Assembly (NCBI GenBank): GCA_965215125.1
Contig: OZ244052.1
Span: forward strand, 32,001-96,000
Direction: 5' to 3'
Source of the DNA: an uncultured candidatus Porisulfidus sp.
GTDB taxonomy: Bacteria; Pseudomonadota; Gammaproteobacteria; Poriferisulfidales; Oxydemutatoraceae
DNA: 64,000 nucleotides
The translations under genes and the position numbers were made by a program. Below the pieces are notes generated by a model, which saw only the letters and a program-made list of their open reading frames with translations, was not told the origin of the DNA and did not search any database. Below are positions 19,849 to 33,763 of this stretch, in pieces; the first letter of the stretch is position 1, and every line of letters begins with the position of its first letter.

Positions 19849-20766
19849 TTACAAATGCCGGATGATTATTTTGTGTTTGTCGGCTATTGCCTCTGCCATA
19901 TGATGGCGGTGACAGCATGTGTGATCTTGCTCAAAGCAAGTGATGGCTACTCTTCGGTGCTGCCGAATGATTTTCACTACATCCTGCAATGCTTGCTTTT
20001 TATCGGTTTGGCTTAAGGTTTTTCGGTATTGATCGAACAGTTGATTATACTCAATGCGAGATTTAATATTCTTTCGCAGATCTCCCTTAATGCCTAATTC
20101 CGGGATATGGATATAAGCTATTCCGAACCTGCCGGTTATATCTTGTAGTTGTTTTTTAGAAAAGCCTTTTTTAATGCTAAAAGGATTATACCTAACATCT
20201 ATCAGTGCAGAGATGCCGTTATCGATTAAGCCTCTCAGATATTGTTCTATACTTTTTCCTTCGTAGCCTATGGTGTAAAGCGTTAAATACTTGTTCTTTA
20301 TCTGTGGTTTTTCTTTAGATATATAACGGCGCAACGGTTTAAATTTCGGTTTGTCCAGAAGCTCGCTATTGATTGCGTAGTACGGATACTTTTTATATAC
20401 CTCGTAGATAAGGGCATCATTGGAAAGTTTTCCATACTCATCAAAGATAGTGTCTAGATACTCTTCATCCTCCGGTTTCAAGTTGATCACCCCTTTAATT
20501 TTCTTATTATTTACAATGTATGCTTTGTCGTTTTTCGTTATCGTCAACAACCGATAATAATCGGCGAGTATCCGAGCATCTTCGTTAGCTTGAAATGAAT
20601 AACACCCATACTTATACGGTAAGAAATGATAAATCGGCTTCTCTTGCCGTTGGGTAAATAGAAAGAGCAACTTTTGCAAGCGGATTTTCTCCGTGCAATC
20701 TTTCCCGCGAGTCAGAATTGCCAGCAACACACGCCTGCGGTAATACAAAGTCTTGGGGAAATTCAT
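19849..20766 (-). CDS. DUF488 domain protein with an N-terminal winged-helix/SocA-like extension
   Basis: LYTIGYEG, LIDVRYNPFSIKKGFSK, HIPELGI, CFEQDHTCCHR; N-terminal LQKLLFL...YHFLPYKYGCYSF. Confidence 0.8.
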   Translation of the reverse strand: MNFPKTLYYRRRVLLAILTRGKDCTEKIRLQKLLFLFTQRQEKPIYHFLPYKYGCYSFQANEDARILADYYRLLTITKNDKAYIVNNKKIKGVINLKPEDEEYLDTIFDEYGKLSNDALIYEVYKKYPYYAINSELLDKPKFKPLRRYISKEKPQIKNKYLTLYTIGYEGKSIEQYLRGLIDNGISALIDVRYNPFSIKKGFSKKQLQDITGRFGIAYIHIPELGIKGDLRKNIKSRIEYNQLFDQYRKTLSQTDKKQALQDVVKIIRQHRRVAITCFEQDHTCCHRHHMAEAIADKHKIIIRHL

Positions 20767-20794
20767 TGCTTGAAAGCCTTCAGATAAAAGAAAT

Positions 20795-21358
20795 TTATGA
20801 TGCGGGAATCGGACATTTTAGAGATTTAAATGAAACCGTTCCCGGAGAGTAGACAAGTGTGAAACCTTTATTTTTATATTCATGGTACTCATACTGATGC
20901 TGATCCTTGATTGGTTTCTTATTCCTCGTTTCTGATAATCCTTTTGTAATAACTATATAATGCTCTTTAATTTCTATTTCTTCGGAAAAGTATATAGCCA
21001 CCATTGAAACCAGATATTTCCAAGCAGGGATAGTATAAAGTATCTGGTTACATGCTTTTTCAAAAGTACGGCTTTCTGCGCTACTTATAGTTTTCTTCAA
21101 TTCTATAAAATAAACATCTGTGGTACTAGTGTTGGGTACTATAATTAAATAATCGCATGACTTTGTATAATTCTTTATATTAGCTATTATCGCTGGATGA
21201 AGTTGGTTCGTTCCCGTTAGATTGATAGCAAGCCCTTCACTTGGTAGTCCTAATATATTGATTTCCATATCGTTACTTTTCTCTTCCAATTTAACACGAT
21301 TTTTAACAATCCTTTTATATCTCTCTGCTTTTAGCAGCTTTTCCATAAACTTAATCAT
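20795..21358 (-). CDS. Hypothetical protein, probable PD-(D/E)XK-like nuclease partner of the adjacent ATPase
   Basis: CDYLII...VYFIELK...ACNQI pattern; 8-nt overlap with the upstream ATPase. Confidence 0.55.
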   Translation of the reverse strand: MIKFMEKLLKAERYKRIVKNRVKLEEKSNDMEINILGLPSEGLAINLTGTNQLHPAIIANIKNYTKSCDYLIIVPNTSTTDVYFIELKKTISSAESRTFEKACNQILYTIPAWKYLVSMVAIYFSEEIEIKEHYIVITKGLSETRNKKPIKDQHQYEYHEYKNKGFTLVYSPGTVSFKSLKCPIPAS

Positions 21359-32973: not shown

Positions 32974-33013
32974 ATTGAATAATGAGCATTATATACATCG
33001 GCAAGCAAAATTT

Positions 33014-33763
33014 CTATTCCTGTTTGTCAGATGGAGCAGAAACCATGCCTGCTGCATCACGCATTTCTGTACTCTCAAGCCAAGTACCGTCAAATTTGGT
33101 TCCATTCCAGAAAGAAGCAAACCTCCATTTATTTTTATCTTTGACATTATCAATAAAATTACTCAGATTAGTTCCTTGCAGATAAGAATGATATAAATTA
33201 GTTCCACTTAAATTAGTTCCACTCAGATTAGCTCCCTCTAGATGAGCCTGACGCAGACTAGCTCTAGATAAATCCAATCCACTTAAATGAGCGTCCTCCA
33301 GATATATTCTATTTAGATCAAGTCCCTGAGTAATAAGATCTATCCTTTTCTTTTCAAAACCGGTTTCTCTTCTTAAATATGCAAGTTGCTCAAGTGCTAT
33401 TTTTGTTGATAGGGAGTTCTCTTCTGTGTATTCTTCCGAGTATTTCTCAGTTAGCATTTTTACACATTCAAAAAAAGTGCTATTGTTCGTATTTTCCTCG
33501 GTTTTATCTATCTGCCTGTCCACATCGTAGGTTCTAAATAACCAAAGTGTAAAAAAGGTAGGCAAGCCTAAAGCTAGAATAGTTAGGCTACTACGCAAAA
33601 TATCATTTTTTAATAAAAAGAACACCCAATACACGACAAGTGCTAGTATCATTCCTATAAGGACCGCCCAGCCTAACGAGTATGTGCGGTTTTCTAAAAT
33701 CCATGGCTTATAATTTTTCCACCAATCAGATTTCATAGATTCAATTTTCTCTTTCAACACCAA
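33014..33763 (-). CDS. Membrane-anchored pentapeptide-repeat protein
   Basis: Two hydrophobic helices, then AHLSG/ASLRQ/AHLEG/ANLSG/TNLSG/TNLYH repeats; AAGGAGG RBS. Confidence 0.8.
   Translation of the reverse strand: MVLKEKIESMKSDWWKNYKPWILENRTYSLGWAVLIGMILALVVYWVFFLLKNDILRSSLTILALGLPTFFTLWLFRTYDVDRQIDKTEENTNNSTFFECVKMLTEKYSEEYTEENSLSTKIALEQLAYLRRETGFEKKRIDLITQGLDLNRIYLEDAHLSGLDLSRASLRQAHLEGANLSGTNLSGTNLYHSYLQGTNLSNFIDNVKDKNKWRFASFWNGTKFDGTWLESTEMRDAAGMVSAPSDKQE

Follow-up and report, generated by a model that had tools for sequence, protein, structure and literature searches.

What is a complete ubiquitin-like (Ubl) conjugation module doing between the two genes of a restriction-modification (R-M) pair? 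The window considered here, by which we mean the whole stretch of 64,000 nt from an uncultured candidatus Porisulfidus sp. (contig OZ244052.1, positions 32,001 to 96,000), raises this question in the segment examined, 19849-33763 (all coordinates are those of the whole stretch). The segment contains 12 open reading frames (ORFs), all on the minus strand and with no long ORF on the other strand, in the order pentapeptide-repeat protein, mod, ATPase, PIN, Ubl, E2, JAB-E1, DUF6527, res, a second ATPase, a small protein and DUF488. An earlier, sequence-only reading of this DNA had described twelve co-oriented genes in this order, as the ORF coordinates confirm, and had proposed that the Ubl machinery may work in concert with the Type III enzyme. 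We think it fairly probable, instead, that a Type III-like R-M operon here offers, between mod and res, a slot in which defence cassettes, the Ubl module among them, are stacked and probably act autonomously, because in other genomes that slot is occupied by many different defence cassettes. The modules would then most likely act side by side and not as one machine; we infer this independence, as we do the co-transcription of the genes and the activity of each module.

The eight genes from mod to res are tightly packed, and their junctions (an overlap of 4 nt, an overlap of 8 nt, gaps of 1, 2 and 12 nt, a further overlap and a gap of 6 nt, in that order) agree one by one with those first reported. 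Mod comes first, and 4.76 kilobases (kb) separate it from res on the same strand. Judged by this spacing, transcription of all these genes probably begins upstream of mod. The stricter claim that res is expressed only by read-through goes no further than the same spacing; promoter-like matches (34 found against 37.7 +/- 6.1 expected) and terminator-like matches (15 found against 12.0 +/- 3.7 expected) stand at chance level in this DNA. The earlier view of a layered locus is upheld in that defence-type modules are stacked here in one tightly packed gene string.

A search with Mod returned 577 relatives in a contig set holding one genome per species, and the best 80 were kept with 10-kb flanks; these loci (referred to by L numbers) have Mod proteins 55-73% identical to that of the window and come from many phyla and many uncultured lineages. 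Res lies downstream of Mod in 70 of the 80, with a gap of at most 350 nt in 18 loci, of 350-1000 nt in 7 and of more than 1 kb in 45. One of the 18 short-gap loci, L072, proved to be an artefact of a partial Res match, which leaves 17 loci with adjacent mod and res among 69 usable loci. Cargo occupies the interval in about 52 of these 69. Most cargo ORFs (137/155) are co-oriented with mod and res, and clustering together with Pfam scans of representatives distinguishes at least 15 kinds of cassette. The kinds found include a CAP12/Pycsar-type TIR protein (11 loci), MNT with HepT, a solitary PIN protein, ImmA/IrrE with DUF4411, a 900-aa ABC ATPase with a Schlafen/AlbA_2 protein, an AAA+ protein with an S8 peptidase, DUF1828, DUF2806, AAA_21 with DUF4276, NYN, Fic and Bro-N proteins, and proteins that remain unannotated. 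Unrelated cargo in homologous mod-res loci was one of the outcomes that the sequence-only reading had itself set against its proposal of coupling, and it is largely what was found.

The window's nearest Mod relatives, L027 (74% identity) and L001 (72%), hold a PD-T4-4 pair in the slot. This pair stands directly after mod in five loci (L001, L007, L027, L032 and L052), the first four of which have res following it, while the only Res match of L052 lies 7 kb on, at the locus end; in L003 the pair is found upstream of mod. The ATPase-PIN pair of the window occurs without the Ubl module in L014, L050, L054, L057 and L076, with res directly after PIN. Cassettes are combined as well. The order in L024 is mod, AAA/S8, ATPase/PIN, Ubl module, res, and that in L012, the same locus as L115, is mod, ATPase/PIN, Ubl module, a Schlafen-like gene, a 5' fragment of res, AAA/S8 and an intact res. 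The window's own slot would accordingly be read as holding two cassettes in the same orientation, ATPase-PIN and the Ubl module. The res fragment in L115 (L115:13796-14059) encodes 95 residues between the Schlafen-like gene and the AAA+/S8 cassette, and it looks like the scar left when cassettes were exchanged through recombination at the 5' end of res.

Distant Type III-like pairs hold cargo too. L117, where an AAA_15 ATPase and a 165-aa protein separate the two genes, carries such a string (L117:94-6450; mod, AAA_15 ATPase, 165-aa ORF, res) adjoining, and convergent with, a block like that of the window; its Mod and Res are 27% and 25% identical to the window's. The window's own genome has a second, distant Type III-like pair at G000:C1:557535-564042 (L133; Mod 707 aa, Res 895 aa), with a 250-aa DUF4145 protein between mod and res and an Mrr-type endonuclease gene just upstream.

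The Ubl module, which we identify below as a Type I Bub module (BubA, BubB, BubCD and BubE), does recur between mod and res elsewhere, a point that the earlier reading had proposed to check. With the twelve window proteins as tblastn queries, the full ATPase-PIN-BubA-BubB-BubCD-BubE string was found between mod and res in six of the 80 loci (L003, L012, L016, L023, L024 and L034). A metagenome scan with BubCD added three relatives, L083 with the full block, L082 and L084; L082 and L083 have identical identities, are possibly the same sequence and were counted once. In a 400-genome sample of the class, in which genome G248 was left unscored, BubCD had full-length matches in only three genomes beyond the window's own, namely G254 (identical to L012), G052 (L116, full block) and G231 (L117, where the contig end cuts the block short). 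An alignment scan of viral contigs with BubCD gave no relatives. The mod-ATPase-PIN-Bub-res block is thus present in the window and in nine other loci with the same eight-gene order, at 36-80% protein identity (Mod 65-80%, Res 52-76%, BubCD 53-78%, ATPase 39-56%, PIN 36-53%). Pairwise identities of Mod, Res and BubCD recover the same groups, (window, L117), (L012, L016, L034) and (L023, L024), and, given this divergence and these shared groups, the block is old and moves as a unit.

Bub also exists away from this R-M family. L084 groups with the BubCD proteins of the block in one clade (support 100/100; its place within the clade is unresolved) and has neither ATPase-PIN nor mod; a pentapeptide gene lies upstream of its Bub genes and a divergent housekeeping-type gene beyond that. 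We also compared nine Type I Bub loci that are more distant, namely three plasmid loci (of 169 matching plasmid records), five loci from 4 of 400 genomes in a sample of the phylum, and L118. No ATPase, PIN or Res homologue was found within 7-10 kb of any of the nine, and eight of them have no Mod homologue nearby; the ninth, L118, has one Mod-like match of 27% identity, 8 kb away and on the other strand. Several of these distant loci neighbour XRE/ImmA-type genes, helicases or Gabija-like genes. With the slot so varied, L084 outside a mod context and the distant Bub operons standing alone, the comparison does not sustain a specific functional link between the Ubl machinery and Mod/Res. As a separate observation, the Bub operon of L118 (L118:3060-19900) has a fused BubAB (297 aa) and is followed without a gap by two large superfamily 1 (SF1)/UvrD-type helicases, one of them with an RNase_H_2 domain; facing the operon are an ImmA-like peptidase and two Gabija-like genes (for a UvrD/PD-(D/E)XK helicase and an OLD-type ATPase-TOPRIM protein).

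The assignment of the Ubl, E2, JAB/E1 and DUF6527 string as a Type I Bub module is made on domain content, motifs and profile matches. Type I Bub (formerly 6E.1) has been described as three genes that include BubE, a DUF6527 serine protease, and its conjugation proceeds through a Tyr oxyester on the E1 and a Ser oxyester on the E2 (10.1101/2024.11.21.623953). In the window, BubA (27786-28523, minus strand) is a multi-domain ubiquitin-like protein of 245 aa (Pfam Multi_ubiq, 8.4e-10) whose profile matches the multi-ubiquitin chains 9cd2, 9d5b and 8u38 in the PDB. Its C-terminus, QAQQG, stands directly before the stop codon; this end is kept in 7/7 BubA sequences, with tails of 0-8 aa in the homologues. 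The predicted structure is confident and mainly beta at residues 1-70 and 172-240, and has a predicted local distance difference test (pLDDT) score below 50 at residues 71-171. The earlier description of this protein as having three Ubl domains therefore holds for the two end domains and the multi-ubiquitin profile and is left unconfirmed for the middle, although three beta-grasp domains are plausible on the model. The BubA proteins of L023 and L024 are shorter (150-167 aa) and have no counterpart of the N-terminal region seen in the other five.

BubB (27391-27783, minus strand; 130 aa; Pfam Prok-E2_E, 9e-30) is an E2-like protein whose profile matches Citrobacter BubB (9eae_C, 2.4e-28) with QRWSRH aligned. 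Its D70, S103 and H105 are invariant, giving the catalytic Ser with nearby His and Asp, and no Cys, of a Bub E2. BubCD (25978-27378, minus strand; 466 aa) is a JAB/JAMM peptidase fused to an E1 adenylation domain (Pfam ThiF 9.3e-24, Prok-JAB 2.4e-05), with a phmmer match to Citrobacter BubCD (9ea4_A, 7.6e-67) over residues 5-438. Counted along that alignment, its E26, D105, R236 and Y378 correspond to Citrobacter E28, D104, R227 and Y370, and E26, H92, H94, D105, R236 and Y378 are invariant in seven sequences. BubE (about 25610-25986, minus strand; ~125 aa) matches Pfam DUF6527 at 1.6e-14, in keeping with its earlier label as DUF6527-like. Its C64, C69, S100, C108 and H111 (P0001 numbering) are invariant in an alignment with five homologues, which agrees with the Ser/His dyad and Cys zinc site expected of BubE, and its Ser and His are equated with Citrobacter S92 and H102 by spacing only. 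The window's bubE has no ATG, GTG or TTG where the homologues start; the homologue Met aligns near RYLLK of the window, and at 25981-25990 the sequence AAGGAGG, which strongly resembles a Shine-Dalgarno element, precedes ATC ATA, and these triplets share nucleotides with the stop codon of bubCD. Such an arrangement points to a non-canonical start (likely ATC or ATA) or to translational coupling.

Type I Bub has been described as having a BubAB fusion (10.1101/2024.11.21.623953), and a fusion to be cleaved by JAB is not what the window encodes. Here each of the two has an ORF of its own, bubB in another frame than bubA and with 2 nt between them. They are also split in 6/6 homologous loci checked, and likewise in the Bub operon of plasmid NZ_CP069372.1. 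Because of the split in the window and in all six homologues, we treat the module as an unfused Type I variant; a frameshift defect was ruled out as the cause, given overlapping or near-abutting split ORFs in each of the six. In other respects the Bub module of Citrobacter sp. RHBSTW-00271 (10.1101/2024.11.21.623953) has the same four domains in the same order, and shares the JAMM residues, the adenylation Arg, the crossover Tyr, the E2 Ser/His/Asp and the Ubl C-terminal Gly. The window differs in that its BubA ends at Gly, with no tail to cleave, and in that its module lies between mod and res, after ATPase-PIN. CapH/CapP or CapW regulators accompany 39% of Bub operons (10.1101/2024.11.21.623953), whereas neither neighbours Bub here. 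The targets and biological role of Bub are stated to be unknown (10.1101/2024.11.21.623953; 10.1101/2024.11.21.623966).

The other cassette in the slot consists of an ABC-type, NsnB-like ATPase of 425 aa (29093-30370, minus strand), proposed as the sensor or regulator of the PIN protein, and a putative PIN-domain nuclease of 191 aa (28525-29100, minus strand), proposed as the effector. The ATPase matches Pfam AAA_15 (1.4e-20) and also AAA_21, and in PADLOC it matches NsnB (1e-49, residues 1-407), PDC-M55A (2.2e-38) and HEC-03B (5.9e-33). It had been called a DUF3696 ATPase; Pfam DUF3696 is not recovered at E<=0.01, and what stands of the label is the best PADLOC match, NsnB, the Menshen ATPase, which carries DUF3696 in S. 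silvestris (PMC12065111). The PIN protein has a sub-threshold Pfam match only (PIN_12 at 0.007) and no PADLOC match at E<=0.01. Its label is supported in other ways, as an AlphaFold model built from a nine-sequence alignment (pLDDT 84.5) has FitB/VapC PIN chains as its top Foldseek matches (best E 5.8e-04, TM 0.4-0.6), and D12, E55, D115 and N132 are invariant in nine homologues. In related loci the PIN gene always comes after the ATPase gene.

HEC-03 is a validated system of an ABC ATPase and a PIN protein (10.1101/2024.01.29.577857). The ATPase here matches HEC-03B only over residues 244-413 and the PIN protein has no PADLOC match, so we regard the pair as analogous to HEC-03 and not as a demonstrated member. 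In Menshen, NsnB is predicted to bind the PIN-fold domain of NsnC (PMC12065111). Menshen needs NsnA (DUF262), NsnB and NsnC, whereas here there is an NsnB-like ATPase only, with no Pfam match to DUF262 among the twelve genes, and the BECR-type effector domain is missing. Furthermore, the N-domain of NsnC is described as an inactive PIN (PMC12065111), while the PIN protein here keeps invariant acidic residues at positions typical of a PIN active site.

The two genes that enclose these cassettes are, by their motifs, a Type III-like pair. Mod (30367-32973, minus strand; 868 aa) is a Type III-like beta-class N6/N4 DNA methyltransferase that matches Pfam N6_N4_Mtase (2.9e-31) and PADLOC MTase_III (5.5e-157), and its translation holds motif IV as MDPPYG (DPPY) and an S-adenosylmethionine (AdoMet) motif, DPTCGSGAT. 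Res (22793-25603, minus strand; 936 aa) is a Type III-like restriction subunit with a superfamily 2 (SF2) helicase and a C-terminal PD-(D/E)XK nuclease. It is a full-length match to NCBIfam NF046055, the BPTD_3080 family restriction endonuclease (1047.8 bits, cut-off 800), matches Pfam ResIII (1.7e-10) and, in part, PADLOC REase_III (3.3e-12), and contains TGTGKT (Walker A), NDEAHH (DEAH) and a C-terminal YPDF...LEVKG (PD-(D/E)XK). Both proteins thus have the features expected of Type III enzymes by the motif definitions in PMC8259958, a beta-class Mod with its motifs and an Res with SF2 and PD-(D/E)XK motifs. Classical Type III R-M (EcoP15I-type; m4C Type III systems, PMC8259958) shares with this locus the position of mod upstream of res, the DPPY and AdoMet motifs and the Walker A, DEAH and PD-(D/E)XK motifs; the subunits here are large, and mod and res in this family are usually parted by cargo, being adjacent (<=350 nt) in only 17/69 related loci. 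A full-text literature search turned up no publication on the BPTD_3080 (NF046055) family. An Hma system was considered and rejected, with no Hma model among the best 25 of 52 PADLOC matches for Mod or among all five for Res.

How the parts might work can be sketched from motifs, family membership and characterised relatives. Mod would methylate host DNA, and Res, combining an SF2 motor with a PD-(D/E)XK nuclease, would cut unmodified incoming DNA. By analogy, the NsnB-like ATPase may restrain or control the PIN nuclease and free its activity on infection, making the pair an abortive-infection-type back-up comparable to HEC-03, Menshen NsnB-NsnC, PARIS and Septu. If the Citrobacter chemistry applies, BubCD would adenylate the C-terminal Gly of BubA and carry BubA on Tyr378, BubB would receive it on Ser103 and pass it to a target, which we guess to be a phage protein, and the JAB domain and BubE would trim or reverse the Ubl link. 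The eight-gene block would be inherited and transferred as a unit, because any cassette lying between mod and res moves along with these two genes, and the PD-T4-4 pair downstream would be a third, separately mobile cassette.

Several observations pull against a slot of independent cassettes. Among the loci of this BubCD clade whose upstream side can be seen, 10 of 11 place Bub ahead of res and immediately behind the ATPase-PIN pair. Near-exclusive embedding of this kind weighs against independence because the same pattern is seen for PrrC, whose function depends on its R-M system. With CapH, CapP and CapW missing, the embedded Bub may depend on its neighbours for control. In a tree of Mod, the Bub-bearing loci do not form one clade; four changes are needed, at least three of them forced by well-supported branches, and the Bub cassette would on that account have been kept or regained repeatedly in this Mod family. 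The 80 loci are moreover the nearest relatives of the window's Mod and not a random sample of the family, and L084 is a contig of 4.4 kb, which limits its visible context. A more far-reaching reading is that in this clade the eight genes would form one integrated sensor, modifier and effector system kept by selection and not only by linkage, with BubA controlling ATPase-PIN or tagging phage proteins that attack the Type III enzyme. We consider such full integration unlikely. The likeness to PrrC, an anticodon nuclease of the EcoprrI Type IC locus, lies in an ABC-ATPase-type effector nested in an R-M operon and in the guard model (PMC12707154); PrrC, however, consists of one protein, belongs to a Type I locus and has a shown dependence on R-M, whereas here there are several genes in a slot with many alternative cassettes. 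Direct coupling to the Type III enzyme, in which the Ubl machinery modifies Mod, Res or phage anti-restriction proteins, or stands guard so that PIN is fired if restriction is blocked (as in PrrC or PARIS), draws on the near-exclusive occurrence of these Bub modules with a single family of Mod and Res, over a range of 53-80% protein identity, on the tight operon spacing and on the precedent of PrrC as an embedded guard (PMC12707154). Yet the same slot accommodates at least 15 other cassette kinds, the closest Mod relatives (L027 and L001) have PD-T4-4 in place of Bub, the 17 loci with adjacent mod and res imply that the enzyme needs no cargo, and L084 and the distant Bub operons have no R-M neighbours. 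We judge coupling of this sort decidedly unlikely; if it were true, it would add a new case in which ubiquitin-like signalling forms part of restriction immunity.

ATPase-PIN and Bub might alternatively form one composite system for which the R-M pair is only a carrier, BubA being put on or removed from the ATPase or PIN protein so as to arm or restrain the nuclease, as Cap2/Cap3 do with the CBASS cyclase. This would explain why Bub follows ATPase-PIN directly wherever upstream context is visible in all but one locus, and it agrees with the pin-bubA junction of 1 nt in the window, the lack of a regulator gene of its own inside the packed mod-to-res string, and the continued proximity to Bub of an ATPase and a PIN protein that diverge fast (36-56% identity). 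The five loci with ATPase-PIN and no Bub, L084 with Bub and no ATPase-PIN, and the nine distant Type I Bub loci without such a pair nevertheless speak against it. The constant adjacency can also be explained by one origin followed by linkage and co-inheritance, because the identities of Mod, Res and BubCD are congruent; the ATPase tree is unresolved and compatible with a single or several origins of the association with Bub. A composite system therefore seems to us unlikely. It is also conceivable that the embedded Bub is not antiphage at all, and is a stress-response or addiction-type passenger, or a decaying module, parked in a recombination hotspot. The source that calls Bub function unknown offers stress response as an alternative (10.1101/2024.11.21.623966), the window's bubE has no canonical start codon, and the slot also holds toxin-antitoxin-type pairs (MNT/HepT and ImmA/DUF4411). 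All four Bub genes are intact, however, their catalytic residues are invariant across seven homologues at 43-65% identity, which indicates selection on function, and most slot neighbours are defence-type genes; we regard a mere passenger as very improbable. An R-M operon with a slot for side-by-side defence cassettes remains the explanation that we favour.

Nesting of one defence system within another ("guilt by embedding") is known from Hma, BREX, DISARM and Type I R-M, the co-orientation there being 96.7% (10.1101/2024.01.29.577857). That preprint and the present loci have in common co-oriented cassettes nested between host core genes, with an ABC ATPase and PIN among the cargo, and slot occupancy is 62.7% for Hma systems against about 52/69 loci here. 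The host system is different, being Type III-like R-M here; the preprint uses "type III" a single time, for DRT type III, and never mentions "ubiquitin". The word "restriction" is in turn absent from the main texts of the two Bub preprints (10.1101/2024.11.21.623953, 10.1101/2024.11.21.623966). The earlier reading knew of no described system with this architecture, and in the literature we likewise found no Bub/6E module inside a Type III R-M operon, although supplementary tables may list embedded Bub loci or Type III hosts. With the NF046055 Res family as a carrier of stacked cassettes, embedding would reach further than the four kinds of host named above. The near-constant nesting of this Bub clade in a restriction operon, beside an ATPase and a nuclease, speaks from context for Bub acting against phage, and the locus offers a compact natural operon for finding Bub targets. 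The slot also supplies candidate defence genes, among them the unannotated 160-aa and 303-aa cargo and the DUF1828/DUF2806 cargo.

Outside the eight-gene block, a PD-T4-4-like pair lies downstream of res (20795-22745, minus strand; PADLOC), consisting by the ORF list of an ATPase of 464 aa (21351-22745) and a 187-aa partner (20795-21358). The ATPase is a full-length match to PD-T4-4_A (3.2e-106), and the small protein has weak PADLOC matches to PDC-M47B (3.5e-07) and PD-T4-4_B (9.8e-05), so that A and B do stand side by side, with B weakly matched. These matches correct the earlier labels of the two genes, which were ATPase and nuclease. Here the pair sits after res, as opposed to inside the mod-res slot or upstream of mod in related loci. 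The last gene of the string (19849-20766, minus strand; 305 aa) encodes a DUF488 protein (Pfam DUF488 3.6e-26, DUF488-N3a 4.1e-10), for which tblastn found a homologue in none of the 80 related loci.

At the other end, a membrane-anchored pentapeptide-repeat protein of 249 aa (33014-33763, minus strand; Pfam Pentapeptide 1.8e-16) precedes mod, again with no tblastn homologue in any of the 80 related mod loci. A single system of all twelve genes was ruled out on the grounds that the pentapeptide and DUF488 genes are missing from all of these loci. L084 has a membrane-anchored pentapeptide-repeat gene (L084:384-1259) directly upstream of bubA, whose start it overlaps. The window and L084 proteins have the same architecture and match colinearly at 25% over 136 aa (E 3e-06) and 21% over 281 aa; the pentapeptide protein may be a Bub-linked accessory, or its presence at both loci may be a coincidence.

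The guanine-cytosine (GC) fraction is 0.35-0.45 inside the 14-kb segment and about 0.47-0.50 in the flanks. The left edge of this low-GC segment is marked by a copy of a short high-copy repeat (19626-19825, strand not applicable; up to 151 blastn matches in the 2.22-Mb genome) and the right edge by a copy of the same family (33885-34025, strand not applicable; up to 161 matches), with short inverted blastn matches connecting the right-edge repeat to the left-edge repeats. Contigs from public runs end at the flanking repeats, and one contig covers 19761-33951. Some of these contigs contain joints that skip about 14-15 kb; we did not take them for an empty site because the sides of the joints are stretches of 20-31 nt inside the high-copy repeats. 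In all, repeats at 18629-18913, 19626-19825, 33885-34025 and 34616-36099 flank the 14-kb segment, the genome yielding up to 126-161 matches to them by blastn, and a PDDEXK_2 (transposase-like) gene is found at 34718-35674, within the last of these stretches.

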